A stretch of DNA of 64,000 nucleotides from Elusimicrobiota bacterium (GTDB lineage: Bacteria > Elusimicrobiota > Elusimicrobia > Elusimicrobiales > UBA9959), in NCBI GenBank assembly GCA_036574205.1, contig JAINCQ010000037.1, positions 68,669 to 132,668 of the forward strand, written 5' to 3'. Below, in pieces: positions 27,511 through 49,684 of this stretch. The notes below the pieces were generated by a model. It did not search any database. It saw only the letters and a list, made by a program, of their open reading frames with translations, and had not been told where the DNA came from. A program made the position numbers and the translations under genes. Position 1 is the stretch's first letter, and each line of letters starts with the position of its first letter.

Positions 27511-27511
27511 T

Positions 27512-32472: not shown

Positions 32473-33319
32473 AATATCTTTTCATCAGCCCCAGGCATTT
32501 TCTTTTTATCTTGCATTTATAGCACTTTGAAGTATATATTCTTTCTTCTTTTGGTAAAGTTATCCATGCGTATTTCCTTAAGTTTTCTGAAAGAACGCAA
32601 AGTGGAAAATGATATAATCTGATAAAACCATCTAAAAACATATCTTCTATTTCAGAAATTTTTTTTGCGCTATCTGACAGACTCAAAAATAATTTATTTT
32701 TATTTATTTCAGCTATACCCTCTATTTCGTAGTGTATTATAGTAATATAAAAATCACAGGCAATAAGTATGTTTTTTATAAATGTTATAGTTTGCGGAAG
32801 ATCATCTATATTTAATCTGTGTATAACAACCCTTATTTCTATGGTACCTGAAAAATATTTTGCAAGATTTACTATCCCTGAAAGAGTTTGTTTATATGAA
32901 CCTTTTACTTTAGATATCCTTTCAAAGTTTTTTTCATTACAGGTATAAAAACTTATGGCCGTTGTAAATGGATTTTTAGCAAGTGATGCAAACCTTTTTG
33001 TAAATTCTACATTAGAAAATTTTCTTCCATTTGTAAGAAGGGTTATCGGGATATCAGGGAGTTTTTCCCTCAAATAAACAAGAAATTTGAAAAAATCAGG
33101 ATGAAGAGTCGGCTCTCCACCAGTTATGTTTATATAGTTTTTTTTATTATGATTTGAAAAGTAAACTTTTTCCCCTTTTTCAATATATAGTTTTAGTTTC
33201 TTTACCTGAGTTTTGAGATCATAATTGCCACTAGGTGTTGAGGTAGAATACTCTTTGGGATTTGTGCACATTATGCATTTGTTGTTGCATTTATTCCAGA
33301 GAGATATATCAGGCATCAA
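32429..33319 (-). CDS. His-Xaa-Ser system radical SAM maturase, HxsC-like
   Basis: CNNKCIMC, ITGGEPTL, LLTNGR, IEIRVVIH, LYHFPLCVL, CYKC-x5-CLG. Confidence 0.85.
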   Translation of the reverse strand: MMPDISLWNKCNNKCIMCTNPKEYSTSTPSGNYDLKTQVKKLKLYIEKGEKVYFSNHNKKNYINITGGEPTLHPDFFKFLVYLREKLPDIPITLLTNGRKFSNVEFTKRFASLAKNPFTTAISFYTCNEKNFERISKVKGSYKQTLSGIVNLAKYFSGTIEIRVVIHRLNIDDLPQTITFIKNILIACDFYITIIHYEIEGIAEINKNKLFLSLSDSAKKISEIEDMFLDGFIRLYHFPLCVLSENLRKYAWITLPKEERIYTSKCYKCKIKRKCLGLMKRYYELYGDYELKPILK

Positions 33320-34685: not shown

Positions 34686-35611
34686 TTCTTTAAAACTGGT
34701 TTAAATTCTTCCCATCCATAAATTTCAGGATATTCACGCCAGGGTCCTTCGCAACGAGAAAAATAAATGCATTTTTTGCATTTTTCAGCTTTAGTTTTTC
34801 CCTCATTTCTTCTGTATTCCCCATAATTTTCTACAAAAACATCTGCGTCTACAACGGGACCATCTGGGATAATTTTTTCCGCAACACATTCCTCATAGCC
34901 TTTCATAAAGCAGTAGGGAATAGCTTCTGTATAGCATTTAACTCTGGCTTTTCTCCCTTCATCAAGCGCTTTTTTAACATATGGAATAACATCCGACTTT
35001 TTGGGAACTATCCATTTCCTGTTTTCCCAAGCTGTGCCTATTATATGAATAAAAGCGAGTTGAAATTGATTAACATTAAGATATATAAGAAGCTTTGCTA
35101 TTTGTGGAAGATATTTGTAATTGACTGAATTTATAACAGTATTTGTTAGAACATAAAGTCCAAGTTTTCTTGCATTTATAATTCCCATTACAGTTTGATT
35201 AAAACTTCCTTTAGAATTTGTCAGCTTATCATGTATTTCTGGATTAGGACCGTGAAGTGCGGGGCTTATCTCAGTAGCACCTGCATTTTTCAATTTTTTT
35301 AAAAAATCTATAGAAGAAAGCGTTCTTCCATTGGTCTGTATTTGTATTTGTCTGTATTTAAGTTGTCTTGCTGCTTTGACTATTTTTATTATATCAGGAT
35401 GAATTGTTGGTTCTCCTCCGGTAAAAACTACTTGTTCTATTTTCTTTTTCGCTCCATCTTTAAGGGCTGAGACTATTTCATTATAATCTTTAGTTTTTAT
35501 TATGGATCTTTTTTCTCCTTGAGCGCAGAAGTCGCATTTATTATTACAGTTAAACGTTATTTTGATATCTAATTTTGATTTAATTGCCATATAACTTAAG
35601 CCACTTCTCAA
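34682..35611 (-). CDS. Radical SAM protein (HxsC-type)
   Basis: CNNKCDFC, FTGGEPT, QTNGR, IPYCF, CKKC-x5-CEG. Confidence 0.87.
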   Translation of the reverse strand: MRSGLSYMAIKSKLDIKITFNCNNKCDFCAQGEKRSIIKTKDYNEIVSALKDGAKKKIEQVVFTGGEPTIHPDIIKIVKAARQLKYRQIQIQTNGRTLSSIDFLKKLKNAGATEISPALHGPNPEIHDKLTNSKGSFNQTVMGIINARKLGLYVLTNTVINSVNYKYLPQIAKLLIYLNVNQFQLAFIHIIGTAWENRKWIVPKKSDVIPYVKKALDEGRKARVKCYTEAIPYCFMKGYEECVAEKIIPDGPVVDADVFVENYGEYRRNEGKTKAEKCKKCIYFSRCEGPWREYPEIYGWEEFKPVLKK

Positions 35612-36953
35612 AAATCCTTAAATTATTTTTATTTTCAATCATTTTAAATATCATATCAAAAATTTTTATAAATAATTTACATCTTTTGTTTATAGCCATA
35701 TTCCCCCATACGTTTTTTTGGGATATATAGTTATAGTATGGATGTATAATGCAATAAGGGGCATAAACACATCTTGCACATGATGGATGAACAAGGTATT
35801 TGAATCTATATAAAAGGATGGCTTTAAATTTTTCAGAATTAAGTATGTCTTTGAATGAAGTTTTTCTTACATTTGCAATTTTGAAAAAAAAGTCTCCACG
35901 ATCTCCTATCATTCTCCCTTCATCACTTGGATATATCCATCCATTTACATCGTAGGCAAATCTATGAAAAAGATCTACACTTCTTGACTCAAAATCATGG
36001 TTTTTAAATATGGAATGAATAAGCAGAAAAAGACCTTTTTCATAAATATCAAGTCCTTTCTTAATATTTAACTCAAGTATATAATCTATAGATCTTTTAT
36101 AAAAATCAAAATACTCATTTTCATCATAACCAATTTCTTTCCATATTTCTTCCTCCTTTGCTCTTCCCATTTGCTCAAGTATTCCAAGCTGTACCCTGTT
36201 AATTTTAAGTTCGATATAATTATCTATTATCTCTTTTTCTTTTGTCAAAAGTGGTCTGGTTATGGTCGTTATAATATTTGGAGTTTCTATATTTGCCTGT
36301 TGAAATTTTTTTAGTGCTTTTTTAAAATTGGAAATAGTTTTTTCATAACCCCCACGCATTACGTTATGAATACTTTTAGTAGCATCAATGGAAACACACA
36401 GGGATATTTTGTTTTTTATAATATAATCTAAATGTTCTTCATTTAATAAAGTCAAGTTTGAAACAACTGAATAGTGAATTTTTTTAAACATTTTTTCAGC
36501 TTTTTTATTAGCGTAGTCAATAAGAAATTTCATAGTTTCAAAATTTTTAAATGGTTCCCCACCTGTAAGTTCTATATAATATTTGTCTAATGGTAATGAT
36601 AATATAAAGTCTACTATGCTTTGAGCCGTTTCTTTTGTCATATCTGCTGAATTTGAGGGGTTGGCAAAGCAATAATGGCATTTAAGGTTACATTTATTGG
36701 TAAGGGATATAATATGGTCTCGAGGACCTTTATAATCAAGATAAAATTTTCTCCGTGATATCTCACAGATATAATCAAAATCAAGATTGTTAGCGATAAA
36801 TTGCCTATCTTTTAACTCAAAGCTTTTTTTACCAGCAATTTTCTTGCCTGATATAAAATTATTGAATTGTTTTAAATTAAGGAATGAATAAAACCCATAG
36901 TCATTTGTTATAAGATATTTATTATTTGAAAATTTTCTAAAATTAAAAAACAT
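35580..36953 (-). CDS. HxsB-like radical SAM protein (divergent paralog 3)
   Basis: YLITNDYG N-terminus, CNLKCHYC, IELTGGEP, IYPSDEGRM, CARC-x5-C. Confidence 0.8.
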   Translation of the reverse strand: MFFNFRKFSNNKYLITNDYGFYSFLNLKQFNNFISGKKIAGKKSFELKDRQFIANNLDFDYICEISRRKFYLDYKGPRDHIISLTNKCNLKCHYCFANPSNSADMTKETAQSIVDFILSLPLDKYYIELTGGEPFKNFETMKFLIDYANKKAEKMFKKIHYSVVSNLTLLNEEHLDYIIKNKISLCVSIDATKSIHNVMRGGYEKTISNFKKALKKFQQANIETPNIITTITRPLLTKEKEIIDNYIELKINRVQLGILEQMGRAKEEEIWKEIGYDENEYFDFYKRSIDYILELNIKKGLDIYEKGLFLLIHSIFKNHDFESRSVDLFHRFAYDVNGWIYPSDEGRMIGDRGDFFFKIANVRKTSFKDILNSEKFKAILLYRFKYLVHPSCARCVYAPYCIIHPYYNYISQKNVWGNMAINKRCKLFIKIFDMIFKMIENKNNLRIFEKWLKLYGN

Positions 36954-36954
36954 T

Positions 36955-37977
36955 TTAATGCCTATAAAAACAGTTTATCCCTTTTGGCCTTGATGGCTTT
37001 TTAATAGGTTTAAATTCTTCTCCACCAAAAGTTTTAAAATATTCCTTTTCAAATCCAGCACATATTTTACTATAAATGCAAAGTTTACAACTTTCCTGTT
37101 TCATCTTTAACATTGAATTTATTGTTGTATACATTTTGCCAGTGTAGCTTTTTTCTGGAAGATACATATCGTCATCTGAAAAAGGAATTTTCCAATCTGA
37201 TATCGTATCCTCATATCCTGTTGCCACACAAGGTGGGATATTACTTAAGATAGGAGATATTGGAAGAGCGTTTTTTAATAAAAGATAATCAATAGTTTTT
37301 GTCAAATATGGGAGCATTTGTGAGTATTTAAGCTTTAATCTATCCTTATTTCTTCCGGCAAGACCAATAAAATGAGTTGCAATGAGATTATATGTTTCTA
37401 TGCCGTATCTTTCATTCAAAAACTTTACTAATAATAGGATATCTTTGTAATTTATTATTGTTATTGCAGTGCTGATTGTAATATATACTCCATTTTCAAT
37501 AGCATTTTCAATAGCTTTTATTGTTTTTCTAAAAGCTCCTTTTATACCAACTATTTTATCATGTAATCTTTCATTATGAGAATGAACTGAAAAAGTAATG
37601 CTATTAAGTCCGCTTCTAAAAAGTTTCTTTGAAAATTCAGGATCTGACATCTTCTGTCCATTTGTAACCATTTGTATTATTTTAAATCCAATCTTTTTAG
37701 CTCCAATGATAGCATTTTCTATTTCTGGATATATTGATGGTTCTCCTCCTATAAATTGAATTATACGGCTTCCATTTCTATATGAATCTTTCATATGTTT
37801 CAGGATTAAGTAAAGTGGCATTGGAGGCTTTGTTTTCCATTCAGTCATTTGGGGAGAGCTATAGCAGAATATACATCTAGCATTACAATCATAATGAAGT
37901 GTTATCTCGCAAATATTAGTTCTTGTTTTCGGCCAATCATATTTTTCTATTGCTTTAAGTGTGGTTATTGCTTTCAT
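36955..37977 (-). CDS. Radical SAM protein (HxsC-type)
   Basis: CNARCIFC, FIGGEP, VTNG, IPPCV, CKLC-x5-CAG. Confidence 0.85.
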   Translation of the reverse strand: MKAITTLKAIEKYDWPKTRTNICEITLHYDCNARCIFCYSSPQMTEWKTKPPMPLYLILKHMKDSYRNGSRIIQFIGGEPSIYPEIENAIIGAKKIGFKIIQMVTNGQKMSDPEFSKKLFRSGLNSITFSVHSHNERLHDKIVGIKGAFRKTIKAIENAIENGVYITISTAITIINYKDILLLVKFLNERYGIETYNLIATHFIGLAGRNKDRLKLKYSQMLPYLTKTIDYLLLKNALPISPILSNIPPCVATGYEDTISDWKIPFSDDDMYLPEKSYTGKMYTTINSMLKMKQESCKLCIYSKICAGFEKEYFKTFGGEEFKPIKKPSRPKGINCFYRH

Positions 37978-37979
37978 AA

Positions 37980-39626
37980 TTATATTTTATATATTTTATC
38001 TACATCAATTATTACCTTCTCTCCATTTTTGAAAAAATCCATACATCCTTCAACAGCCACAATAGTTGGGATTTTCAGCTCTCTTGCTATAATAAGCGCA
38101 TGACTTGTAAAGACACCATTTTCAAGTATAAGCCCTTTTGCTTTTAAAAGTAGTTTGATATTTTTACCAAGGTTTTTAGCACATATTATCTCTCCTTTAA
38201 TGTCATTTTCAATATCTGTGTCGTTTATCAAAAAAATCTTTCCCTTTACTTTGCCGGGATATATGGTAATTCCTTTCAAAAAATTTTTGCTAAGATTTTT
38301 TCCTCTCATATATGTCTTTAAATTTTTTTTTCTTAACGATGATATCATCTTTTTTTTCAAGTCTTCATATTCTTTGATTAATTGGCTTATCTCAAGCGAA
38401 AAAGAATTGTATAACCTGTGGTTTTTATTGCCAAGATATTTAAAGAGAGTAGAATATATTTTTGTTTCAAATTTTTTTTCTCCTCTTATTTTACCTATTG
38501 CAAGTGTTGTAGTTGCCTCAAAAGGTTGCCTTATTCTATTTAAAAGGTCCATAACACAGTCATAGAAAGCGAACTTTGTGTTTATTGGTTCTATATCTTT
38601 TTTTTCTATATTATTAACTTTAAAATATTTCCTAATGTTTTTTTTGACATTTTCTATTATTCCTTTCCCCTCTTTAATTTTTCTTAATATTTCTTTATTA
38701 AGATTGTATATGTTTTTGAGTATAAATACTTCAGAGTTCTTTGATATAAAAGAAGTTTTTAGACCAAGAGATAAAAGCTCTTTGTTGATAAATTTAACTA
38801 TTTTAAAGTTGTTAGTAGCATTATATGGCGAGTAGAGAGTCTTTAAGTTTACATTTAATGGTAAGAAATCTATAGAAAAGTTTGGCGGCAAACTTCGGTA
38901 CTGAACTAATTTGAATTTCAGGTTAATGTCTATAAGAAATTCTATATCAGTTTTATTAAATGTTTTTCCACAGTTTTTTAGTTTATTGAATATCTGGCTG
39001 AAGAAAAGATAAAGAAAATAAAATTCATCAGTATTTTCTATTATCAGATCTTTTTTTACTGCAATAGTATATGGTTTTTTTATTCTTCCTTGCTCTATTG
39101 CGTCATGTCTCCCACCATCTGAATATTCTATATAAAATGATGGTTTTTCTATATCTTCCATAAAAATTACGCCGCTTACTATTGGTTTTATAAATTTTTG
39201 GATTATTATTGACATTGGTTGAATACCTAAAGTATAAGGAATAAGGTCTTTTTTATACTGACTTAACAGAACTTTTCTAATATCGTTAAAAATATTTTTT
39301 CTGTCTGAGATAATGGATTTAAAAAGTCCAGCATAAGATTTATTTTTTGAATCTTCTATTTCAACTGATGATCTTATTATAAATCTATCATAAAATATAT
39401 TAAGTTTAATTAGATTTTTAATTATATCTTTCATTACCGAAGAAGGTATTTTAGAATGTTTTATTTTTTCTATTATTAAGTCAAAGGAATCTTTTGACGT
39501 AACTCCAAAAGATTTGGATATAAAATCGGAGCCGATTATCAAAAAATCAGGGGTAAGTGACAAAGAATCAAGCTTTAAAAGATTTTTAGCTTTATTACCA
39601 GTTTCTTTTCCTATTATTATATGCAT
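37980..39626 (-). CDS. PEP-utilising enzyme: PPDK/PEP-synthase-type ATP-binding domain plus C-terminal phospho-His swivel domain
   Basis: IRSS..EDS..SYAGLF, IIQKFI...SGV, DIEF, VQYR; TSHALIIARELKIP His motif. Confidence 0.8.
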   Translation of the reverse strand: MHIIIGKETGNKAKNLLKLDSLSLTPDFLIIGSDFISKSFGVTSKDSFDLIIEKIKHSKIPSSVMKDIIKNLIKLNIFYDRFIIRSSVEIEDSKNKSYAGLFKSIISDRKNIFNDIRKVLLSQYKKDLIPYTLGIQPMSIIIQKFIKPIVSGVIFMEDIEKPSFYIEYSDGGRHDAIEQGRIKKPYTIAVKKDLIIENTDEFYFLYLFFSQIFNKLKNCGKTFNKTDIEFLIDINLKFKLVQYRSLPPNFSIDFLPLNVNLKTLYSPYNATNNFKIVKFINKELLSLGLKTSFISKNSEVFILKNIYNLNKEILRKIKEGKGIIENVKKNIRKYFKVNNIEKKDIEPINTKFAFYDCVMDLLNRIRQPFEATTTLAIGKIRGEKKFETKIYSTLFKYLGNKNHRLYNSFSLEISQLIKEYEDLKKKMISSLRKKNLKTYMRGKNLSKNFLKGITIYPGKVKGKIFLINDTDIENDIKGEIICAKNLGKNIKLLLKAKGLILENGVFTSHALIIARELKIPTIVAVEGCMDFFKNGEKVIIDVDKIYKI

Positions 39627-40330
39627 CAGACAAACCTGTATTTTTTAATTTTTAATAAAATGGAGGTTGTTCTTTGAAACCCATCAACTATCTCGCTGGA
39701 TTTTATCAAAAGTCTTTTTTTCATAATTGGACTTTCAGTTACAAGGGTTTGAAAGTCGTTTGCAGTTATGGTATTTCCTTTCCTTTTTTCATCTTTTAAA
39801 TATCTTATAAATCCTTCATCAATAACTTTGCCAAGCCAGTTATAGGATACATTTTTTTCTACAGCTGTTATAATATAGCGTATCCCCTTTGAAAGGGTTT
39901 TTTCTATAATATCAAACATATCATTTCCTTTTACTACTGAAATATATTTTATTCCCATTTTTCTTATACCCGAAATTATGTTATTGGTTATTTTTCTATC
40001 TTGTTTAGTTAAATCATAATCCATGCTGGATATAAAAATAGTTTTTTCTTCATGCCCGATGATTTTTACCGATTTTCTGATTGCGTCCAGAAAAGGTATT
40101 TCCATTTTATTATATTTATATTCATAACACCTAATTCCCATAAGATTTGCTTGCTTTTTTATTATATCTGATTTAGGAAACTCATTAAATATTTCATGAT
40201 GCAATTTACCAGCGTTAAATGTAAAGAGAAGTTTTAGATTGTATCCAAGTTCAATAGCCTTTATTATAGCAAAGTGAGAATCTTTTCCTCCACTATAGTT
40301 TGTAAAAGCAATTTTACTTTTCTCAGTCAT
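39626..40330 (-). CDS. Diphthine-ammonia ligase (Dph6)-like PP-loop ATPase
   Basis: YSGGKDSH, QANLMGI, WLGKVID, DFQTLVTESP (compare EFETLVxDxP). Confidence 0.7.
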   Translation of the reverse strand: MTEKSKIAFTNYSGGKDSHFAIIKAIELGYNLKLLFTFNAGKLHHEIFNEFPKSDIIKKQANLMGIRCYEYKYNKMEIPFLDAIRKSVKIIGHEEKTIFISSMDYDLTKQDRKITNNIISGIRKMGIKYISVVKGNDMFDIIEKTLSKGIRYIITAVEKNVSYNWLGKVIDEGFIRYLKDEKRKGNTITANDFQTLVTESPIMKKRLLIKSSEIVDGFQRTTSILLKIKKYRFV

Positions 40331-42293
40331 AGCATATATATAAGTTTATCTCTCCTATTAGGTTAAAAGAATTTATTTTTTTGAAACGTTTTTTTATTAA
40401 AGCAAAATCTTCATTATTTAAGGAATCAATTATATTTATTGAATTGACCTTGCTTAGTAATTCTTTTTTAATATCGTCACCAAACCATGAAAAGACATTC
40501 CATATTACTGTAACTTTTTTAAAAAAGTTTTTTGGTATAAAGTCAGTTATTGAGAAGATAGGGATTGAAAAATCCATGCGACTTTTATCACAGTATTTGT
40601 CTGTAATATTTATCCCATTTTTAAAATCTTTTCCAAAAAAATCAAGCCATTTTATATGAAAAGAATTTTTTATGTCTATAAATTCTGATGATATTTCAAC
40701 TAAGCTGTTGAAATTATATTGTATAAAAAGCCGTTTCTTTGATATAGTTAAAAAATTTGAAATATCAAATAAGATATATCTATCTTTTATTGAGGTGCTT
40801 TTCTTTATTTCGTTGGATATGAATTTTAAGACCTCACTGTATAAAGTAAGTCTTAAAGCATAGTTTTCAGGATTTATGAGATAACCAAACTTATTTTTAG
40901 TAAGGATAGATTCAATTTTATTTTTGTCAAAGTTTACATTTTTAAGGTAGGTAGAAAATTTTTTATAGGTTGTAAGATATGGATTTTGATGTTTTATTAT
41001 AGAAGAGCATTTTAAAAGTAAAGTATGAAAAAATCTGTCCATTTCACAGAGCTTTGCTATTGGCTTTATTTCGGAAAGTATTTCCTCTGTTTTTTTTATT
41101 TCATTCGCTGTATAAGTTTTAGTTGATAAAACTTTATAGGGATATTTTTTTGAATATTTTATACTTAATTTTTTTGAGTTTATTTCAAAAAATGTGTTTT
41201 TCCATATCATAAGACGAAAAAAATCTAACTTTGCACCAGATGATAACGCATAATCTATTGTTTTTTTGAAATTTTTTAAATTATCACCCGGAAGTCCATA
41301 AATAAATGATAATGTAAAAGGATATGAGTATTCAAGCATCTTTGGAGAGTATTTAAGAAAATGATCCTTTAGTTCTTTTATATCAAATATCCTATTTGCT
41401 TGTTTTAGAGCTTTTTTTGTCAGAGTTTGAACTCCAAATCCAAAAGTTATTCTTGGATCTAATATATATTTAAGTATATCTGGATTAAACTTATTTATCT
41501 CGCTATTAAAATTAAAAAAAACATTTCTTTTAATAGTTTTTATATATTCAAATATTTTTTTTGCTTTTTGAATGTCAAGAAATATATCGCTGTCGCAAAA
41601 TTCTATGCTTTTTACTTTGGGGTTTTGTGAGAGTATAAAAGCTACTTCTAATTTTAGCCTTTTAAAGTCAAATCCCCTGTATTTTATTATCCTGTTGGTT
41701 ACAGCACAATATCCACAGTTGTATAAACATCCTCTTGAGCCTTCTATGTAAAACTCGGAGTAATTTTTTACATCAAATATTTTGTTAAGATATGGAGAAG
41801 GTATCTTATTAAGGTCTTTAATAGGAGGTCTTGGAGGATTTATTTTGTACTTTTTACCATTTCTATAGATAAGCCCTTTAATTTTTTCAAACATCAAGTC
41901 CTTTCTGATAATAGAATAAACAAGTTCAAAAAATGTCTCTTCTCCTTCACCATAGACTATAAAATCTACTGGATAAAAATTAATTTTATCATAAAAGGAA
42001 GTATTTATTGCTGGTCCTACTAAAACTATATTAACTCTTTTAATTTTCTTCTTTATTTTTTTAGAGAGATTTATAAATATCTGTGGGTCATTATAGCAAG
42101 AAAATCCTATTAAGTTGGGTTGCCCTTTATCATAAAATTTTTTATCAATAGTACTTTCAAAATCTTCTACAGATTTAATAATGACATTTATGCCTTTTTT
42201 TAAGTTTTTTAAAAGGAAAGCCTTAAGATACCCAAGCTCAAGGGGAGGATGTTCAGTTTTCTCTGCTATAAGGTATATGTTATATGAATTCAT
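40323..42293 (-). CDS. Cobalamin-binding radical SAM protein (class B methyltransferase-like)
   Basis: PPLELGYL, GFSCY, GEGEETF, PSPY, EGSRGCLYNCGYC, GVQT, IYGLPGD. Confidence 0.85.
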   Translation of the reverse strand: MNSYNIYLIAEKTEHPPLELGYLKAFLLKNLKKGINVIIKSVEDFESTIDKKFYDKGQPNLIGFSCYNDPQIFINLSKKIKKKIKRVNIVLVGPAINTSFYDKINFYPVDFIVYGEGEETFFELVYSIIRKDLMFEKIKGLIYRNGKKYKINPPRPPIKDLNKIPSPYLNKIFDVKNYSEFYIEGSRGCLYNCGYCAVTNRIIKYRGFDFKRLKLEVAFILSQNPKVKSIEFCDSDIFLDIQKAKKIFEYIKTIKRNVFFNFNSEINKFNPDILKYILDPRITFGFGVQTLTKKALKQANRIFDIKELKDHFLKYSPKMLEYSYPFTLSFIYGLPGDNLKNFKKTIDYALSSGAKLDFFRLMIWKNTFFEINSKKLSIKYSKKYPYKVLSTKTYTANEIKKTEEILSEIKPIAKLCEMDRFFHTLLLKCSSIIKHQNPYLTTYKKFSTYLKNVNFDKNKIESILTKNKFGYLINPENYALRLTLYSEVLKFISNEIKKSTSIKDRYILFDISNFLTISKKRLFIQYNFNSLVEISSEFIDIKNSFHIKWLDFFGKDFKNGINITDKYCDKSRMDFSIPIFSITDFIPKNFFKKVTVIWNVFSWFGDDIKKELLSKVNSINIIDSLNNEDFALIKKRFKKINSFNLIGEINLYICYD

Positions 42294-43392
42294 AGGTAAA
42301 AGTAGTTTTAAACTTTTGTTTTGGAATTTTTTTTATCGGGTTTATTTTCTTTATATCTATCTGATCAATATATTCTATATTAAATCCTCTACATCTTTCG
42401 TTTAGAATGCATTTCCCACAAATTCCCTTTATTTTTGCACTTCTATTTCTTAAAATAGTTTTCATATCACTTATTTTTTCCTCCGGTATAAGAACTACCT
42501 CGTCGACTTTTTGATTAGTTTCCCAGTCAGCTATTATATTTAAATATTCAGGAAGTAGACATGGAGGAAAATTTATCAAGATTCTTGTGAAAAAAGGAAA
42601 ACCGTAAGCTTCGGCTATTTTAAGCCCTCTTCGTATTTCCACTGCCAGGTCAGATATTTCACATAATAATTCCTTATTTATTCTCATAGCGCCACTTGAG
42701 TTTGCTGCTATTATGTTAAAATAATTTATTTGAAGTTTGTTATAGGTAAGATTAAAGAAATTCACAAAATCTTTATAATTAAGTTTATTTAAAACGATAG
42801 CAGTAGCAAGCTCAGCACCTAATTCCTTTATATTTTCCATTGCCTTCATCGTTTCTTTAAAAGCGCCCTTTCTTCCTACAAGAGTATCATGGATATTACT
42901 TTTTGAAGAATGAAGAGAAATATCAAAGGAGTTAAAACCTGCGTCTATGAGTCTTTTTGCGTATTTTATATCTGAAAGTCTCCTTCCATTTGTACAAAGC
43001 TTTATACATTCATAACCCAATTTCCTTGCAAACTCTGATATCTTGAATATATCTTCTCTTAGTGTCGGTTCCCCTCCTATTATAGATGCTATCCAGCATC
43101 CTTGTTTTTTACCTATATAAAGCACCTTGCATATTTTTTCAAATGATATATTTTGATTGTGGTTTAGAAGTTTGGGATCATTATAACAAAAAAGGCATCT
43201 GTTATTACATGTGGTATTAACTGTGACCTCTGCAGAATATGGTTTTAATGAGAGGTCCCATTCAATAGCTTTTATTCTTTTTTCTATTTCTGCTTTTGGG
43301 AGTTTTGGGTTAAGTCTTTTAATTAGTTTAAAGTTATTTTCAAACCTAAGTCTTTCACATACCATATATCTCTCTTTCAAATCTGACTGCAT
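42280..43392 (-). CDS. Radical SAM protein (HxsC-type)
   Basis: CNNRCLFC, IGGEPT, CTNGR, FPPCLL, CGKC-x5-CRG. Confidence 0.85.
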   Translation of the reverse strand: MQSDLKERYMVCERLRFENNFKLIKRLNPKLPKAEIEKRIKAIEWDLSLKPYSAEVTVNTTCNNRCLFCYNDPKLLNHNQNISFEKICKVLYIGKKQGCWIASIIGGEPTLREDIFKISEFARKLGYECIKLCTNGRRLSDIKYAKRLIDAGFNSFDISLHSSKSNIHDTLVGRKGAFKETMKAMENIKELGAELATAIVLNKLNYKDFVNFFNLTYNKLQINYFNIIAANSSGAMRINKELLCEISDLAVEIRRGLKIAEAYGFPFFTRILINFPPCLLPEYLNIIADWETNQKVDEVVLIPEEKISDMKTILRNRSAKIKGICGKCILNERCRGFNIEYIDQIDIKKINPIKKIPKQKFKTTFTYEFI

Positions 43393-44419
43393 TTTTTATG
43401 TAATCTCTAAAAAGAGGCTCTTTGTTTTTTTTCATTATTTTACTAAAAAAATCTTTGATTAATCTGTCTCTTATATTCAAAGCAATTCCACCATCTTTTA
43501 ACTCTTCTTTATAATAATAATTTTTGATGCAACTTTCACATTTTCGCCTGTTATATTTACATGTTTCATATTTTTTATAAAATCCATTTTTTACATCTCC
43601 TATTACTACTTTGTCTCTGTCTTTTGAGTATTTTATGAAAGAATATGGATAGAAACCAAATTTTCCGTCGGGGTATAATTCAATGTCAGAGTAAAATGGA
43701 CAAAATTCTTCTACTCTTTCTTTATCTAAATAACTAAAAAAAGATTCATGGTATATGTAATTTCTTTTTTTAATTGATTTTAATATGTATTCATTTATTT
43801 TCTTCATGTTTTTTTCAAAAATATTATATCTTTCCTCATTCCACTTTCCCGAACCACTGACACACTCTATATTTATTATTTTGAATCCAAGTAGTACTAT
43901 CTTTTTGAAATCTTCTATCATATTTTCTACAAAATCCGGAGATACGCAATATATGGCTATAATCTTATCCTTCAACCTTTTTATAGCTTTAATTATGTTT
44001 TGCTTTACAATTTTATAACTACCAGTTCCATCTAAGTATACCCTGTTTAAATTATGACTTTTCAAAGAACCTGAAAAGCTTATGGCAAGATATATATTAT
44101 TTTTTTCTATAAAATCCAGTATCTTTTTGTTTATTATAGTACCATTCGACGCGATAAATATTGCAGAGTTTTCATATCCTTTTATTTTCCTTATTGTATT
44201 GACAGATTTTTTTAAGACTTCAAAGTTTAAAAATGGTTCTCCTCCATAAAATTCTATCTTTATTTTTTTCTCTTTATATTTTTTAATTAATAAGAGGGCT
44301 TTCTTTATGTCTGAATGAGATATATTTATAGCTAAATCCTTTTCTACGTTACAGTGCAAACATCTAAGGTTGCATCTGGAAGTGACAGCAATCTTAATTT
44401 TTTTAATTTTAGATTGCAT
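43355..44419 (-). CDS. Radical SAM protein, directly downstream of the precursor
   Basis: CNLRCLHC, FYGGEPF, ASNG, CPF...PDG, CESC. Confidence 0.85.
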   Translation of the reverse strand: MQSKIKKIKIAVTSRCNLRCLHCNVEKDLAINISHSDIKKALLLIKKYKEKKIKIEFYGGEPFLNFEVLKKSVNTIRKIKGYENSAIFIASNGTIINKKILDFIEKNNIYLAISFSGSLKSHNLNRVYLDGTGSYKIVKQNIIKAIKRLKDKIIAIYCVSPDFVENMIEDFKKIVLLGFKIINIECVSGSGKWNEERYNIFEKNMKKINEYILKSIKKRNYIYHESFFSYLDKERVEEFCPFYSDIELYPDGKFGFYPYSFIKYSKDRDKVVIGDVKNGFYKKYETCKYNRRKCESCIKNYYYKEELKDGGIALNIRDRLIKDFFSKIMKKNKEPLFRDYIKNAVRFEREIYGM

Positions 44420-44428
44420 ATCATATGG

Positions 44429-44740
44429 TCAGCACCATCCTCCCCTTGAATGAGAGCCATGAGAACCGTGCGAACCATGCGAACCATGCGAACCATGCGA
44501 ACCATGCGAACCATGTGAACCATGTGAGGAGTGTGAACCATGAGAAGTGTGACTTGTATGACTTGTTCCATCAAAATAGTTTGTATGAACATATTGTGCG
44601 GATGCTTCTTGTGGAAGAGATGTTCCAATTATCCCAAGGGCTATTGCGGTTTTGACTATATCACTATCTAAAATTTTACCTTCTTCACTATTTAGATAAG
44701 TTTTTATTTGTTTTTTTATGGTCTTTTTATTATTCTTCAT
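44429..44740 (-). CDS. hxsA: His-Xaa-Ser repeat peptide (HxsA-type RiPP precursor)
   Basis: Leader followed by 12 tandem HxS triplets, then HSRGGWC; ATG 44740 follows a GGAGGGG RBS; surrounded by hxsB/C/D homologs. Confidence 0.9.
   Translation of the reverse strand: MKNNKKTIKKQIKTYLNSEEGKILDSDIVKTAIALGIIGTSLPQEASAQYVHTNYFDGTSHTSHTSHGSHSSHGSHGSHGSHGSHGSHGSHGSHGSHSRGGWC
44453..44560 (-). repeat. 12 x 9-bp coding tandem repeat (HxS codons)
   Basis: Five identical CGAACCATG units at 44471-44515, flanked by synonymous or variant units. Confidence 0.95.
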
Positions 44741-45737
44741 CTTCCCCTCCACTTAAGGTTTTCTTTTGTTTTTGAATTAATTCCTTTGCTCTTTTTATTA
44801 TCTCTTCTTCCTTCTTTTTTTCTTCTTCTCTTTTTATTTTCTCCATTAGTTTTTGATAATAATTACAATAAGTAAGAGTTAATTTGTTTAATAGTTCAGC
44901 GCAGGCAGTTTCTCCAATATTTGATATTTTACATTGTTCTTGAGTTTTTGGATTACGAAAGATATTGCAATCAAAACTCCCTGTTTCTCTATATCTTTTG
45001 GCAGCCTCAAGAAGATCTGATTTTTTATTGTCATTACATTCACTTAATGATTTATTATTGCATAGCTTATCTATTCCTAATTTCATTTTCTGGCACAAAG
45101 TAAAATAATCATTAACACCTAATGCTTTAAGTACCTCTCCTTTTTGTCTTCCGGTTTCCTCTTCAATTTTATAATAACCCAAGCAATTGTTTATATTTGT
45201 GTCTTTGCCTATTAAATATTCCTTCATCTTATAGGTATAATAACTCTCAACACACATTTTTCTCATTTCTTCTGGCAGAGTGTTACAATATGCTACATCC
45301 TTTTTTGCGATTGCAACACATGTGATGTAATCAGTTAAAAGAGTTATTATATTGTTTGTTTCTTCTTGAGAAAATGTGTATGACATCTTTTTGCTTTTTT
45401 TTGTTCCCGGTCCCCATATATTTCCATAATCTTCTATTATATTTTTTGGTGTTTTGTTACATCCTGTAACTTGTATATAAGTGGGCGTAAGAGTGGTGTT
45501 CAAAGAATTCTGTAGATAAGTAGTTGAAAGAAGGGGTAGCAAAGCATCCTGAGATGGTGGATTTTTTGTTTCTCTATCTACTTCTTTATTTGCTTCTCTC
45601 GGTATCTCCCTCCCAAACGGGATTTCCTGTTTGAGCGGTTGCGGAACAATTGGTTTCTCTTTTGGTTTTGTTAAAAATTTTATTACTATTAAAATCGCTA
45701 TTAAGACTACTGTAATAAGAACGATATATTTTCTCAT
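44730..45737 (-). CDS. Membrane-anchored Cys-rich extracytoplasmic protein
   Basis: Single N-terminal TM helix, Pro/Thr linker, many spaced Cys, charged helical tail; ATG 45737 follows GGAGG. Confidence 0.7.
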   Translation of the reverse strand: MRKYIVLITVVLIAILIVIKFLTKPKEKPIVPQPLKQEIPFGREIPREANKEVDRETKNPPSQDALLPLLSTTYLQNSLNTTLTPTYIQVTGCNKTPKNIIEDYGNIWGPGTKKSKKMSYTFSQEETNNIITLLTDYITCVAIAKKDVAYCNTLPEEMRKMCVESYYTYKMKEYLIGKDTNINNCLGYYKIEEETGRQKGEVLKALGVNDYFTLCQKMKLGIDKLCNNKSLSECNDNKKSDLLEAAKRYRETGSFDCNIFRNPKTQEQCKISNIGETACAELLNKLTLTYCNYYQKLMEKIKREEEKKKEEEIIKRAKELIQKQKKTLSGGEDEE

Positions 45738-45738
45738 C

Positions 45739-46017
45739 CTACCTCCATTTATCTTCGCCAAGTGCTGATATAAGAGCTTTTGTTACTATCAACTGAGATA
45801 TCCTGAAATTTTTTTTGGCAAGATCTATTCTGCATTGTTCGTTCAAAGCCTCATTCATTAGCTTATCAAAAATATTTTCGCAGTCATTGCCTTTTATTTC
45901 GGCTATAATAGTTTTTTTATTATCATAAAGTTTTATCTGTCCAGTATTATCTATTATATTCTTTGCTATATTTAAAGCTTCATAACTATAAACCTTCTTA
46001 TCTATTTCAAACCTCAT
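45739..46017 (-). CDS. HxsD-like protein
   Basis: IDKKVYSYEAL...LMNEALNEQCR...LIVTKAL pattern; ATGA overlap with the hxsB stop. Confidence 0.65.
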   Translation of the reverse strand: MRFEIDKKVYSYEALNIAKNIIDNTGQIKLYDNKKTIIAEIKGNDCENIFDKLMNEALNEQCRIDLAKKNFRISQLIVTKALISALGEDKWR

Positions 46018-47504
46018 ATGTTCATCTCCTCTTTTTCTCTTGCCCATCGCTCTAAAAATTTCGCTTTTTTATTATCGTTTAAGAACTCAAAAATAATATC
46101 CATTATCCCCATAAATATTTTACATCTTTCAGATGTAGCATTATTCCCCCAGATATTATTTTGGGCTTCATAATTTATGACCGGACACACGCCACAGTAA
46201 GGTTTATAAACACACCTTGAGCATTGAATCTGATTTTCAAGATTAGATGATATAGCGCAAACTTTTGTTGTAGGAGAGGATATAATTTGTTTATATGAGT
46301 TTTTATTTAGATTTCCAAGTTTAAAAAAATCATTTCCTTCCCATCCAAGCATTCTCCCTTCATCGCAGGTATATATATCTCCATTGTAATTATACGCTAA
46401 TTGTCCCAAACCTGCTCCACATGGACATCTTAAATCCACAAAACCGCTATCTTTGCTATTTATTATTTTATGGACAATCATCTGGGCGGTTTTTTCCTTT
46501 ATTTCAACGCCTTTTGCGTTAAGTTCTATTATATATAAAAGTGCTGTTTTATAGAATTTCAGAAATGATTCTGAATCATATCCTATCTTATCCCATAATT
46601 TTCTGGCAAAACCTATTGGGGAAAGCGGTCTTATAAATATAGTCTCAAGCCCATTTTTTACGTACTCATCTAATATTTCTTGGGGATATTTGAGTGATTC
46701 TCTTGAGACTGTTGTCAGAGCAGAGGGCTTAAAAATTCTGTAAGCTAAATTATGTTGTGTGTCATGTTTTTGATTGAAATATTTAATCCATTTTACTGCA
46801 ATATCGTATGAACTAGCTGCAGTGTATATTCTGTTTTTATTATGGAGTTCTTTCGGTCCGTCCAGCGATGTGCATAAAGAGACCTCATTTTCAAGCAAAA
46901 ATTCTGCTTTTTCCTCGTCCATAAGTGAAAAATTGGTTACCACAGAAAGATTTAACCTCTTGTCTTTTTTCTTTTCTATATCTCTTGAATATTTTATAGT
47001 TTTTTTCACAATCTCCCAGTTATATAGTGGCTCGCCCCCTTGAAACTCTATAGTTATTGTTGGGGAAGTTGATGAAAAAGCCATATCCACTGCTTTTTTA
47101 GCCGTAGTATAATTCATATCGGTTTTTGTGTCTTTTTCTCCAATAGCCTGGCTCTGGCAATAAACGCATTTATGGTTACACCTTAAAGTTGCCACTATTA
47201 TATGCAAAGCAGGTCCAAAAAATAGATATGAGTTTGAATTCTTCCACCTTGAAAATATATCCTCAAAATCTAAATTGTCGCTTATAAATCCTTTTGACGC
47301 AAGTTCGTTGTATATTGCTTCCCCTTTCTTGATCTTTCCGTCAACAAATTTTTTAAATTCTGACTCTTTTAGCATAACGTAATACCCAAAATCGTTTGTC
47401 ACAAGTATTTTATCTTTTATTTTTTTCCATCTTATATGAATTATATCTGATTTACTTTTTTGATTTGTTTCCGTATTTTTCTTCCCATGTTTTTTTGATT
47501 TCAT
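46014..47504 (-). CDS. hxsB: His-Xaa-Ser system radical SAM maturase HxsB
   Basis: LHIIVATLRCNHKCVYCQ, IEFQGGEPL, TSLDGP, FIRPLSPIG, DLRCPCGAG, YTCDEGRM, CxxC-x5-CxxCP. Confidence 0.9.
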   Translation of the reverse strand: MKSKKHGKKNTETNQKSKSDIIHIRWKKIKDKILVTNDFGYYVMLKESEFKKFVDGKIKKGEAIYNELASKGFISDNLDFEDIFSRWKNSNSYLFFGPALHIIVATLRCNHKCVYCQSQAIGEKDTKTDMNYTTAKKAVDMAFSSTSPTITIEFQGGEPLYNWEIVKKTIKYSRDIEKKKDKRLNLSVVTNFSLMDEEKAEFLLENEVSLCTSLDGPKELHNKNRIYTAASSYDIAVKWIKYFNQKHDTQHNLAYRIFKPSALTTVSRESLKYPQEILDEYVKNGLETIFIRPLSPIGFARKLWDKIGYDSESFLKFYKTALLYIIELNAKGVEIKEKTAQMIVHKIINSKDSGFVDLRCPCGAGLGQLAYNYNGDIYTCDEGRMLGWEGNDFFKLGNLNKNSYKQIISSPTTKVCAISSNLENQIQCSRCVYKPYCGVCPVINYEAQNNIWGNNATSERCKIFMGIMDIIFEFLNDNKKAKFLERWAREKEEMNI

Positions 47505-47898
47505 TTGATTTCTCCTCTTCCATTTCCTTTTTTAATTCTTCCTCAACCTCTTTTATCAGTTTTTCTAACTCCTTTTCTTCCTCTGTCGATAGTGTATCCG
47601 GCGAAACAGGGGTTTGAGGCGAGTATGTTATAGCTTTTCGTATAAGATATTCTCTAAGTTTTAAGCTATCATTCATTATCCTTTGTCTTAAAATCTCATC
47701 TCTTAACTCAAGTTCTATATTTTTCTTAAGTTTTTTTATATCAATCTTTGAATCAGATATTGGTTTCAACTCCGCTTTTATAAAATTCTTTTCCGTTGAA
47801 AGTAAAACATAGAATTGAGAAGTAAGTGTATAAAAAACATATCTTACTGCCTCAATTGGATATTTATTTAAATCATACTTTAGTGTTATTTTATTCAA
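47452..47898 (-). CDS. hxsD: HxsD-like protein with acidic C-terminal extension
   Basis: YPIEAV..Y...ELRDEILRQRI...LREYLIRKA; TTG start after AGGAGG; first gene before hxsB. Confidence 0.7.
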   Translation of the reverse strand: MNKITLKYDLNKYPIEAVRYVFYTLTSQFYVLLSTEKNFIKAELKPISDSKIDIKKLKKNIELELRDEILRQRIMNDSLKLREYLIRKAITYSPQTPVSPDTLSTEEEKELEKLIKEVEEELKKEMEEEKSNEIKKTWEEKYGNKSKK

Positions 47899-47908
47899 TA
47901 TTCCTCCT

Positions 47909-48012
47909 AATTAGGCATACCAAATCTGCAGCACACAAGCCATCCTGCTATACATTTAATCCCTCCACGATTACCAATTAGGCATACCAAATCTGCAGCA
48001 CACAAGCCATCC
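47909..48012. repeat. Exact 37-bp direct repeat, two copies, 30-bp spacer
   Basis: AATTAGGCATACCAAATCTGCAGCACACAAGCCATCC at 47909-47945 and 47976-48012. Confidence 0.95.
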
Positions 48013-48627
48013 CCTTTCAGATGACTGAACAGTTGTAACTGTCCATTGTTGGCTTGGATATGATTGAACCATGATATGAGTTCCTTCTGCCCTAGGAATA
48101 AATCCGACCACCCGAAAACCTGATCTGCATATTGTGACTCCGTTATTGTCATAGAAATGATAGTAGCAAAGACCTAAAAGCCTACCGTTTACTCTTAGAT
48201 TTCCATCTATGCTGACGTTACCATTATTAAATGTGTCTCCATATATTATGACGTTACGATTATTAAATGTGACCATATCATCACCCGTATCCCAATCCCA
48301 AAATCTTAATTCATTAAATGCCACCCTGTGGAAGGTGTTTTGCGTCTCAAACTGCACGCTGTCTCTTCCTCCTGTGCCAATTCTTGTCCATCCATTTACG
48401 TGCAATTTCACCCATGGCGAGCTCGTCCCTATGCCAACCTTACCTCCGTCTCTTGCAAGCCAGGTATTGTTTGTGGTTAAAAGGCTTACATATCCACCAT
48501 ATGGAGCAGGGTAATATGTTGTTATTTGCAATGTTTCGCTTTCAATTAATTTTGAGAATGAAATAATATAAACCGTTGTAACAACTAATAGATTAATGAC
48601 TTTTTTAAAATATTCTTTAATACTCAT
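47971..48627 (-). CDS. Exported beta-rich protein with TTYYPAPYG motif (fibre/adhesin-like)
   Basis: Signal-like N-terminus, TTYYPAPYGGY, GKVGIGTSSP..KLHVNG repeat, Cys-rich C-terminus; ATG 48627 follows GGGGGAG. Confidence 0.6.
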   Translation of the reverse strand: MSIKEYFKKVINLLVVTTVYIISFSKLIESETLQITTYYPAPYGGYVSLLTTNNTWLARDGGKVGIGTSSPWVKLHVNGWTRIGTGGRDSVQFETQNTFHRVAFNELRFWDWDTGDDMVTFNNRNVIIYGDTFNNGNVSIDGNLRVNGRLLGLCYYHFYDNNGVTICRSGFRVVGFIPRAEGTHIMVQSYPSQQWTVTTVQSSERGWLVCCRFGMPNW

Positions 48628-48730
48628 AACTCCCCCTTTTTTGCAGAAGCACAATCTACCATATTTCAATATAATATTATAATATATAAAACTTATATTT
48701 TCAAGTATATGTATAAATAAGCCATATAAA

Positions 48731-49684
48731 TTAAATGAAATATATTAATCTTTTTATTATTTCAGATCTTTTTTCAGATGCCTTTTGATAAGTTTTTGCC
48801 AGATTTTTGTCCCCTAACTCAAAAAAATTTTCTATTAACATCCGATAATCAGATTTAATTATGCCAGCGTTTTTCCCCCATAAAAATTTTGAGATTAATG
48901 ATAGAAATTCGTTATAATCTAACTTTTTTGCATATTTTAATGTCCCACAGCTTTTAAAAACCATATCTATAAAATTTTCATGTTTTTTTGATATATAAAA
49001 TTCGCTGTTTTTTTTCTCCATTTCTTCAATTGCTTTAGCAGTTTCATTAACCCGCTTGATAAACCTATGTATTGATTCATCTTTTTGGGGAATAAATGAT
49101 GTTTCAATAAATCCATAAGACAGAGGCAACAACCCGCCATTTAAAGCGCTTATATTATTTAAATTTGGTTTAAAGGTTTCATAGAACTCTTCTATGAGGT
49201 TTGAATAATATATTGCAGGTATAGAAAAGACAAGTTTTATCTCTATCTGATGTGGTATTTTTAATAGGTCTGTTCCAAGAAAACCAAATTTTTTGCTCCA
49301 GGAAAAAATAAGGTGTTTTGAAAGTTTTTTTTCAAAAGTGCTTGCAAGTTTATAGGCATTTTCTATGTTTAATCCATTTTTGATTGATACTATAAGTATA
49401 TGCTCGCTTACACCTGAAAGTAAAAAAAGATTTTTTACTCCTGTTTTAATTATGATTGCATTTTTTATTATTTTATCATCTTTGTCTATTATTTGTTTTT
49501 CAATGAGTTTTTCTGTTTGATTTGATACCGTTTCAATATTTATTTTTTTACCAAAGTCCTCTGTTTCTTTTAGCGCTGAGGTGATTTTTTCTTTTATGAT
49601 AAGAAAATTTTTTTCCGTCTCTTTATTTATAAACTTATATGGGAATATGTTTCTAAAGATTTTGACCTTGGATAGCATTATCAT
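48731..49684 (-). CDS. McsB-like ATP:guanido phosphotransferase-fold protein, degenerate
   Basis: Follows an mcsA-like gene; SKVKIFRNI..YKF, FSWSKKFGFL, TLKYAKKL, KRSEIIK are collinear with McsB. Confidence 0.6.
   Translation of the reverse strand: MIMLSKVKIFRNIFPYKFINKETEKNFLIIKEKITSALKETEDFGKKINIETVSNQTEKLIEKQIIDKDDKIIKNAIIIKTGVKNLFLLSGVSEHILIVSIKNGLNIENAYKLASTFEKKLSKHLIFSWSKKFGFLGTDLLKIPHQIEIKLVFSIPAIYYSNLIEEFYETFKPNLNNISALNGGLLPLSYGFIETSFIPQKDESIHRFIKRVNETAKAIEEMEKKNSEFYISKKHENFIDMVFKSCGTLKYAKKLDYNEFLSLISKFLWGKNAGIIKSDYRMLIENFFELGDKNLAKTYQKASEKRSEIIKRLIYFI

Follow-up and report, generated by a model that had tools for sequence, protein, structure and literature searches.

A candidate His-Xaa-Ser precursor peptide of the HxsA4 class in a radical-SAM gene cluster of an Elusimicrobiota bacterium

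What is a small peptide built around a run of His-Gly-Ser triplets doing in the middle of a long string of radical S-adenosylmethionine (radical-SAM) genes? The question is raised by a gene on the reverse strand of a 64,000-nt stretch of DNA from an Elusimicrobiota bacterium, here called the window, to whose positions all coordinates refer. The gene belongs to the HxsA4 class of His-Xaa-Ser repeat proteins, every module of its product is conserved among relatives, and its neighbours encode HxsB, HxsD-like proteins and further radical-SAM enzymes. We consider it likely that the gene encodes the precursor peptide of an expanded His-Xaa-Ser radical-SAM maturation system, and that this peptide is modified, cut twice and exported; modification, both cuts, export and role are what we infer from family, conservation and gene context.

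Anatomy and family of the precursor

The precursor matches the NCBIfam model NF038313 (His-Xaa-Ser repeat protein HxsA4) with 77.5 bits (E 1.1e-21, cut-off 55) and, in the genome search, with 76.6 bits; both this family model and a leader-only profile find a single hxsA4-type gene in the 1.85-Mb genome. The score against the HxsA3 model is sub-threshold (32.8 against 65). Four families were matched at E up to 0.01, and TIGR03979, the model of canonical HxsA, is not one of them. No folded domain and no peptidoglycan-binding domain was found in the precursor, which gave only a sub-threshold collagen-repeat match. The closest relative found in the database comes from an Elusimicrobiales bacterium, carries the NCBI name HxsA4 and is 85% identical over the leader; the search that found it was word-indexed, used residues 1-60 and returned only 2 matches among 3 candidates. 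Such peptides are common in the phylum: 96 of 401 sampled genomes have an NF038313 match, 78 of them over the cut-off, and within the window's own taxonomic family the matches extend to 42 of 46 sampled genomes. A full-text literature search, with supplements outside its scope, returned no paper on HxsA4, HxsC4, HxsA3 or His-Gly-Ser repeats. Among the papers found that mention His-Xaa-Ser or HxsB, only one E. coli study (in two versions) is about an Hxs system itself; PMC9062424, in its accessible part, does no more than mention the system.

Translation starts at the ATG at 44740, which has a GGAGG ribosome-binding site 6-10 bases upstream; the alternative GTG at 44752 lies inside this ribosome-binding site. 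The product of 103 residues reads MKNNKKTIKKQIKTYLNSEEGKILDSDIVKTAIALGIIGTSLPQEASAQYVHTNYFDGTS, then (HTS)2-HGS-HSS-(HGS)8 and then HSRGGWC, with DGTS as the residues just before the repeat run. A sequence-only reading of this stretch had already proposed such a core of 12 H-x-S triplets, HSR and GGWC, together with five identical 9-mers, and the translation bears out both. Five consecutive copies of CATGGTTCG encode residues 76-90 (44471..44515), and the HGS units flanking this block use three other codon sets, CATGGTTCA, CACGGTTCT and CATGGCTCT; Tandem Repeats Finder describes the array as period 9 with 7.6 copies and 93% matches. Ahead of the core, E-E-G occupies residues 19-21, and K-I-L-D-S-D-I-V-K stands between this Gly and the hydrophobic stretch. 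The latter consists of 13 uncharged residues, and no 19-residue span attains Kyte-Doolittle 1.6. Counted from Q49, the core has 55 residues with 14 His, 1 Cys, one Arg and one Asp, and a computed pI of 7.4. The gene before it, for a 343-aa protein, overlaps the first codons of the precursor with its stop, and the next gene begins 9 bases past the precursor stop, so that the gene sits in an operon-like string. A promoter and terminator scan of 43800..49000, the counts of which were not above those of shuffled sequences, gave no terminator-like site after the precursor.

The anatomy was compared in 70 precursor genes, namely the 30 best-scoring loci and 40 chosen ones (35 belonging to the window's own family, the other 5 to two further ones). 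One was left out for masked bases, leaving the 69 relatives referred to below, with the rest of the NF038313 matches outside the comparison. A common plan runs through them: Lys-rich start, F-L-x-S-E-E-G-K box, hydrophobic segment, A-x-A-type site, H-x-N box, repeats and end motif. E19 and E20 are invariant (69/69), position 21 is Gly in 67 and Ala in 2, and position 22 is Lys in 64. In the hydrophobic region G36 is invariant and K30, L35 and G39 are each kept in at least 90%, as are H52 and N54 of the H-x-N box. The peptides end in RGGWC (24/69), CRGGWC[N/C]PRC (13), GSY (17), G[S/Q/A]W (8), GSGT (4) or another motif (3).

The repeat run is the variable part of this plan. In the 69 relatives it comprises 5 to 39 uninterrupted units (median 14), and the middle residue of the triplets is Gly in 880 of 1134. 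Within the window's genus one relative (G286) has 11 units and the two genes of another (G060) have 17 each, against 12 in the window. The dominant codon unit also differs, being CATGGTTCG in the window, CATGGCTCT in G286 and CACGGCAGC or CACGGCTCG in G+C-rich relatives, and H-G-S is kept from 30% to 67% G+C with differing codons, including switches between TCN and AGY serine codons. Runs of five or more identical units occur in only 3 of the 69. Recent expansion by slippage and selection on the protein, deduced earlier from the identical 9-mers and from synonymous variation in the outer units, fit these data, since each close relative has its own dominant unit, long identical runs are rare and the residues persist while even the serine codon family switches; the variation in repeat number that was to be looked for in relatives was likewise found. 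The public sequencing runs were less informative on this point. The locus was found in one run only (X1, a hot-spring metagenome and possibly the source), and no length variant can be called from it because its contigs break within the repeat, at 44498 and 44486, which no contig crosses. Three other runs match the repeat alone (44442..44537), X2 additionally matching 44802..44849. An RNA library is among them, which cannot show transcription of the precursor.

The leader has a wider distribution than the HxsA4 class. A leader-only profile, run without a word index against 1.84 billion representatives, matched 285 proteins at E up to 0.001, of which 32 are at or below 1e-10. In the best 150 of the 285, an E-E-G-type box is present in 146 (118 EEG, 11 EDG, 9 EEA and 8 other variants), and the residue after it is Lys in 114 and Arg in 13. 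Several His-rich designs of core follow this common leader, including H-x-S repeats, H-x-D repeats and Cys-rich cores. When the best 150 were filtered for complete-looking proteins (at least 4 His after residue 55 and at most 260 residues), 108 were left, ending in GGWC (16), Trp or Tyr (44), a G-x-C-x-W-type motif (6), other GGW (3), Phe (3) or otherwise (36). Its occurrence in 16 of 108 makes GGWC a real recurrent C-terminal motif and no quirk of the window gene. In two members of this wider family, P0118 (258 aa) and P0096 (168 aa), the His-rich core is followed directly by an autoprocessing domain of the Hint type that starts at a C-C-F motif; P0118 matches PT-HINT with 34.8 bits (cut-off 27.7) and P0096 has sub-threshold Hint matches only. 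In some relatives the C-terminus of the core may thus be a site of processing or attachment.

Table 1 Features of the precursor gene and its cluster (residue numbers refer to the precursor)
Feature	Position	Strand	Basis or remark
hxsA4-type precursor gene	44429..44740	-	103 codons and TGA stop; NF038313 match
Lys-rich N-terminus, residues 1-14	44699..44740	-	precedes E-E-G box
Conserved box Y-L-N-S-E-E-G-K, residues 15-22	44675..44698	-	first candidate cut site, after G21
Hydrophobic segment T-A-I-A-L-G-I-I-G-T-S-L-P (TAIALGIIGTSLP), residues 31-43	44612..44650	-	K30 precedes
A-S-A, residues 46-48	44597..44605	-	signal-peptidase-I-like -3/-1 site; candidate cut before Q49
H-T-N-Y box, residues 52-55	44576..44587	-	start of core
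12 H-x-S triplets, residues 61-96	44453..44560	-	translation; Tandem Repeats Finder
C-terminal cap H-S-R-G-G-W-C, residues 97-103	44432..44452	-	translation
232-aa exported protein	47971..48669	-	first gene of locus; ends in GWLVCCRFGMPNW
HxsD-like protein 1, 148 aa	47452..47898	-	TIGR03976 41.1 bits, below cut-off 50
HxsB radical SAM/SPASM maturase	46014..47504	-	TIGR03978 510.3 bits, cut-off 370
HxsD-like protein 2, 102 aa	45739..46047	-	TIGR03976 17.3 bits, weak match
343-aa membrane-anchored Cys-rich protein	44730..45761	-	one N-terminal transmembrane segment; no Pfam/NCBIfam family
Downstream genes: 12 radical-SAM open reading frames (one with B12 domain), Dph6-like ATP pyrophosphatase, phosphoenolpyruvate (PEP)-utilising enzyme, TP-methylase-fold protein	27031..44419	-	
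Second HxsB	33309..34685		TIGR03978 461.2 bits, over cut-off 370
401-aa polytopic membrane protein, divergent A24 (prepilin-peptidase-like) aspartyl protease	31267..32472	-	orthologue motifs

Candidate cut sites and the A24-like protease

Two sites at which the leader could be removed, after E-E-G and between A-S-A and Q (residues 46-49), had been pointed out in the sequence-only reading, and both are conserved in the 69 relatives. Judged from its composition, the second would be a site for the general secretory (Sec) pathway and signal peptidase I. The 13-residue hydrophobic core lies within the 7-15 residues wanted, and it is followed by P-Q-E-A-S-A and then Q, with the helix breaker P43 at -6 and A46 and A48 at -3 and -1. 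All 69 relatives have a site that satisfies the -3/-1 rule 0-5 residues ahead of the H-x-N box, with Ala at -1 in 63, Ala (47) or Leu (15) at -3 and Gln at +1 in 42. The distance from the Gly of the box to this site is 27 residues in 30 relatives and 29 residues in 28, which accounts for 58 of the 69. Stronger evidence for the A-x-A site than its presence as such comes from the A-Q pair, which recurs, and from the constant spacing relative to the Gly.

The first site would suit a protease of the cluster itself. The 401-aa polytopic membrane protein encoded among the downstream genes is seen as a divergent A24 peptidase on the strength of its orthologues. In an alignment of 15 sequences, the window copy and 14 of 15 reciprocal-best-hit orthologues (one 673-aa open reading frame being left out), D39 and the motif W-P-A-G-D112-x-K are invariant, and seven of the 15 match PF01478 (Peptidase_A24) at E up to 0.01, the best at 1.4e-7; in the genome search four orthologues (G372, G218, G321 and G122) are over the PF01478 cut-off. 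The peptidase is about 400 residues long and bears an additional conserved region at its C-terminus. Of 47 genomes of the taxonomic family, 40 have a member of this protein family. Both searches, for peptide and for protease, covered 36 genomes, which divide into 32 with peptide and protease, 3 with the peptide only, 1 with neither and none with the protease only, a co-occurrence that is no statistical test because the genomes are kin. The E-E-G site suits the protease of the cluster, as peptidases of the A24 family cleave behind Gly on the cytoplasmic side of the membrane.

On these grounds the balance tips towards use of the A-x-A cut. For the E-E-G cut we see slightly less than an even chance, and the A-x-A cut does not exclude it. 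It is also possible that the E-E-G box serves, in addition or instead, as a docking site for the maturases.

Several observations weigh against the picture of a modified, doubly cut and exported precursor. The HxsA4 class has been characterised by sequence only, and in the public sequencing runs examined the locus occurs as DNA contigs only. The presence of the A-x-A site in 69/69 relatives is a weak test, as the site was picked by the -3/-1 rule itself in an Ala-rich stretch. A stretch of 30 residues with an acidic box ahead of the hydrophobic segment is unusual for a Sec signal peptide, and in known A24 substrates the hydrophobic stretch follows the Gly directly, not after nine polar or charged residues as here. 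The window's own 401-aa protein gives no family match even at E up to 10. As regards the maturases, the best score of any window protein against the HxsC model TIGR03977 is 169.0 (cut-off 267.9), and against HxsC4 (NF038332, cut-off 500) it is 146.3, from 30350..31270, followed by 141.8, 98.3, 94.9 and 91.5.

Gene cluster and locus types

The order of genes, all on the same strand, is p232 (the 232-aa exported protein), HxsD-like protein 1, HxsB, HxsD-like protein 2, p343 (the 343-aa protein), the precursor and then 12 radical-SAM open reading frames. Thirteen reading frames of the cluster match PF04055; they lie on one strand with overlapping or abutting ends, and the enzymes of this block probably modify the precursor. 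Weak relatives of the 343-aa protein stand directly upstream of the precursor in both of the locus types described below.

For HxsD-like protein 1 a structural model was obtained (predicted local distance difference test 82.8), showing a small beta-alpha-beta-beta-alpha domain and long helices. The idea that HxsD is a PqqD-like leader-binding domain was dropped, as Foldseek gave no match to the PDB at E up to 0.001; the best PDB matches were 3ueb_F (E 0.034) and Pcc1-type small alpha/beta folds (E 0.065-0.095). A predicted complex of this protein with the leader scored 0.01 against a mark of 0.32, a value that informs neither way (alignments A3 and A2). Past its TIGR03976-like part, the protein also has a conserved C-terminal extension, L-T-P-E-Q-E-K-E-L ... 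T-W-E-E-K-Y-G, common to 20 orthologues.

Further features of the cluster deserve mention. The last radical-SAM reading frame, 27031-27552 (-), has 173 residues and covers only the first half of the models of its relatives, so that it may be a split or decaying gene; a 118-aa reading frame of no family (26632-26988, -) follows it. Within the radical-SAM string, 37980-40330 (-) holds a PPDK_N-type PEP-utilising enzyme of 548 aa and the Dph6-like ATP pyrophosphatase; none of the 38 related loci fetched yielded an orthologue of the 548-aa enzyme. The 232-aa family shares the conserved start S-E-T-L-T-L-T-T-Y-Y-P-A-P-Y-G-G-Y and has no Pfam or NCBIfam match; its gene stands first in 20 of 23 loci of the RGGWC type described below. 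An exact 37-base direct repeat (47909-47945 and 47976-48012, 67 bases apart) copies the last codons of the 232-aa gene (GWLVCCRFGMPN) past its stop, and an 81-aa reading frame, 47907..48152, therefore ends in the same motif.

On the other strand, adjoining the cluster, 22657..26359 (+) encodes an 823-aa fusion of NifH with a NifD-like protein, and also a NifK-like protein of 428 aa. Group VI nitrogenase-like genes of Elusimicrobia were named in 10.1101/765248, where many radical-SAM neighbours were noted; in the main text, as far as it is accessible, the word 'peptide' is absent. Neither 'His-Xaa-Ser' nor 'RiPP' occurs in the accessible text of a 2026 review (PMC13474568). In the accessible parts of this literature a tetrapyrrole substrate is proposed for the group VI genes and an HxsA4-type peptide is unmentioned.

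Up to 20 kb was fetched around 38 precursors of the window's family, of which 23 end in RGGWC (C-tail), 14 in GSY (Y-tail) and 1 in GQW. Genes were compared by reciprocal best hit to window proteins, so that the comparison is biased to the window's type, and the genomes are kin. The difference between the two tails was marked: the 232-aa exported protein occurs in 20/23 RGGWC loci and 1/14 GSY loci, HxsD-like protein 1 in 21/23 and 1/14, HxsD-like protein 2 in 23/23 and 1/14, and the two PapB-like radical-SAM genes at 43355..44419 and 29319..30404 in 14/23 and 15/23, respectively, and in 0/14 each. The GSY layout runs from HxsB through a 343-aa-like protein and the precursor to an unrelated protein of some 390 aa, and its radical-SAM genes lie on the opposite strand. 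In the loci compared, the end motif therefore marks one of two locus types or subsystems. One same-genus genome (loci L074 and L075) carries an RGGWC- and a GSY-type locus on one contig, about 55 kb apart, with differing enzyme sets.

The proposal that the GGWC end depends on one enzyme was dropped, as most other cluster genes are likewise confined to C-tail loci; with two locus types, a biased comparison and kindred genomes, no single enzyme can be assigned to the Cys end. The A24-like gene was rejected, too, as an indicator of C-tail loci: 14/23 C-tail and 0/14 Y-tail loci have it within 20 kb, yet it is present in Y-tail-only genomes, and in G122, G212 and G339 it is found on the same contig 13-20 kb from a Y-tail peptide. 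The 232-aa orthologues all end in G-x-M-L-C-C-R-I-x, and a link between this Cys-bearing end and that of the precursor is put forward as a testable idea, no more.

Proposed course, rival readings and known systems

If the reading preferred here is correct, each module of the peptide would have its own task. The Lys-rich start and the F-L-x-S-E-E-G-K box would most likely be the grip for the cytoplasmic maturases, HxsB and the HxsD-like proteins, and probably also the site, after the Gly, at which the A24-like membrane protease of the cluster cuts. The second module, from the 13-residue hydrophobic segment to P-x-x-A-x-A, would be the export signal, with its signal-peptidase-I-type site 27 or 29 residues from the Gly. 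The H-x-N-Y box would form the third module, and the (H-G-S)n core the fourth, its copy number drifting by slippage while selection holds the residues; the C-terminal cap, GGWC or a terminal Trp or Tyr, would be the fifth. The peptide would be synthesised in the cytoplasm, where the radical-SAM enzymes would alter the His and Ser of the repeats, and would be inserted into the membrane with its N-terminus inside, cut once at each membrane face and released outside the membrane. The expected product is a modified peptide from Q49 to C103, about 55 residues with 14 His. That the peptide occurs almost throughout the taxonomic family speaks for a lasting physiological function.

Other explanations of the gene and of its leader were weighed. 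The chance that it is no gene at all, and simply a low-complexity 9-base DNA repeat that is open by accident, is negligible: the antisense frame 44425..44655 (+, 76 aa) is open too, as such an accident might leave it, yet the NF038313 cut-off is passed, a ribosome-binding site is present, residues are kept across differing codons and the leader without the repeats scores 101.6 bits against the profile of the relatives, so that conservation of the non-repetitive leader already refutes this view. A pilin-like fate would have the sole cut after E-E-G, with the hydrophobic segment retained as an anchor or assembly helix and the repeat displayed on the surface or in a fibre. In favour of this, the system is accompanied by an A24-like peptidase of its own, 67 of 69 relatives have Gly at -1, and the hydrophobic segment is conserved beyond the needs of an ordinary signal peptide (G36 invariant, L35 and G39 in at least 90%). 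We nevertheless regard it as improbable, given the nine residues that part the Gly from a stretch of 13, too short for a stable membrane helix, and the textbook P-x-x-A-x-A end after that stretch. F-L-x-S-E-E-G resembles Flp prepilin leaders. Membership of the leader in the Flp pilins was rejected, as 0/69 leaders match the Flp_Fap pilin model even at E up to 10 and the leader profile reached E 0.53 at best against PDB sequences.

As regards chemistry and role, metal binding is our leading guess, and a tentative one: the peptide would chiefly store, buffer or carry metal, through its 14 imidazoles and terminal Cys, with the modifications tuning or pre-organising the ligands. The ligand-rich 55-residue core, the other ligand-rich cores (H-x-D repeats, Cys-rich) behind the common leader and the housekeeping role suggested by presence throughout the taxonomic family speak for it; composition alone is weak evidence, and no metal transporter or metalloenzyme partner stands among the annotated neighbours. 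It is doubtful that each H-x-S is closed as a three-residue cyclophane (His-C2 to Ser-C-beta) to give a stiff ladder lighter by 2 Da per triplet. The premise of that earlier suggestion is sound, in that radical SAM/SPASM formation of His-X-X cyclophanes is established: HaaB (HAA), YhhB (HNR) and HtkB (HTK) link His-C2 to the C-beta of residue 3, according to the accessible part of PMC11499958, and the cluster has several SPASM-type enzymes. The application to this peptide found no support, as no window enzyme reaches a cyclophane-family cut-off (YhhB 52-64 bits against 445, GrrM 42-64 against 310, XyeB 44 against 450, FxsB 46 against 370, AmcB 45-55 against 425), the presence of thirteen different radical-SAM genes hints at more than a single repeated reaction, and the change reported for the canonical system, the one Hxs system studied, is +8 Da at one site, the SHRSS motif (PMC13128918, accessible part). 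We think it unlikely that the peptide works in the periplasm as an effector, binding phage DNA on its way in and barring its entry. It has a precursor and maturases of the same superfamily as the canonical system, its repeat number varies strongly among close relatives as in conflict loci, and the accessible part of PMC13128918 reports that matured E. coli HxsA blocks phage DNA entry and that each H-x-S repeat is needed for defence. Set against this are the single basic and single acidic residue of the core (E. coli repeats are rich in basic residues), the lack of a match to any peptidoglycan-binding domain, the occurrence in 42/46 family genomes compared with 27.2% of Klebsiella genomes for canonical HXS (PMC13128918, accessible part), and thirteen radical-SAM genes with an adjacent nitrogenase-like reductase in place of two maturases. 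The most elaborate reading is a long shot: a hybrid of a kind not reported so far, with a leader that unites a maturase handle, a site for a dedicated prepilin-type protease and a Sec-type signal, and with an HGS core rebuilt by about a dozen radical-SAM enzymes, possibly with the group VI nitrogenase-like reductase, into a covalently laddered imidazole metal or redox polymer, the Cys of its GGWC tied to the exported protein that bears C-C-R. If true, an orphan nitrogenase-like family would gain a peptide substrate.

Whichever role applies, the comparative anatomy of the precursor is new here, comprising the fixed site spacing, the wider family of leaders, the repeated occurrence of the GGWC end and the existence of two locus types, in a large Hxs form that is common in Elusimicrobiota and, in this case, adjoins uncharacterised group VI nitrogenase-like genes. 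The comparison points to an end of the leader after G21, after A48 or both, and singles out E19, E20, G21, G36, A48, H52, N54, W102 and C103 for mutation. Judged from the relatives, the number of repeats could be trimmed freely, and the A24-like protease belongs in any co-expression.

The preferred reading of a modified, doubly cut and exported HxsA4-type peptide can be set beside several known systems. Passing the cut-off of NF038313 gives the precursor a name only, as the model comes without a described function, cleavage site or modification, and its partner HxsC4 is reached by no protein of the window, by the scores given above. Class III signal peptides (substrates of PilD, TadV and FlaK) are alike in having a charged leader that ends in Gly and a co-encoded A24 peptidase; they differ from the precursor, which has its nine polar residues after the Gly and an A-x-A site after the hydrophobic stretch. 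The triceptides (HaaA, YhhA and HtkA) also place aromatic-X-X triplets behind a leader and are matured by radical SAM/SPASM enzymes, a type of which the cluster has several. Their precursors carry one to a few motifs, compared with 12 H-x-S triplets here, in which a crosslink is hypothetical.

A further parallel is the canonical His-Xaa-Ser system of Pseudomonadota (TIGR03976-03979), which was reportedly predicted in 2011. It is alike in the combination of an H-x-S protein with an HxsB-type SPASM enzyme, an HxsC-like radical-SAM protein and HxsD-like proteins, and its peptide is exported with an N-terminal cut, as would be the case for the window peptide. The order of genes is D-B-C-A in the canonical system and D-B-D-x-A in the window, with p232 first and 12 more radical-SAM genes, and the window's HxsC-like and HxsD-like proteins fall short of the canonical cut-offs. 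The window peptide itself differs in its 103 residues, its leader with the box ahead of the hydrophobic segment, its 12 mostly H-G-S repeats and its GGWC end, and it has neither a folded domain nor a TIGR03979 match. With one Arg, one Asp and a pI of 7.4 in a core that has no folded domain, it therefore fits the canonical DNA-binding model poorly. The four-gene form was tied to phage defence in 2026 (Li et al., Nat Commun 2026, PMC13128918), and in E. coli, according to the accessible part of that study, a non-canonical N-terminal cut of HxsA and its accumulation in the periplasm both require each of HxsB, HxsC and HxsD. The canonical system joins radical-SAM maturation, N-terminal processing and export, and offers a precedent for the course proposed here for the HxsA4-type peptide.

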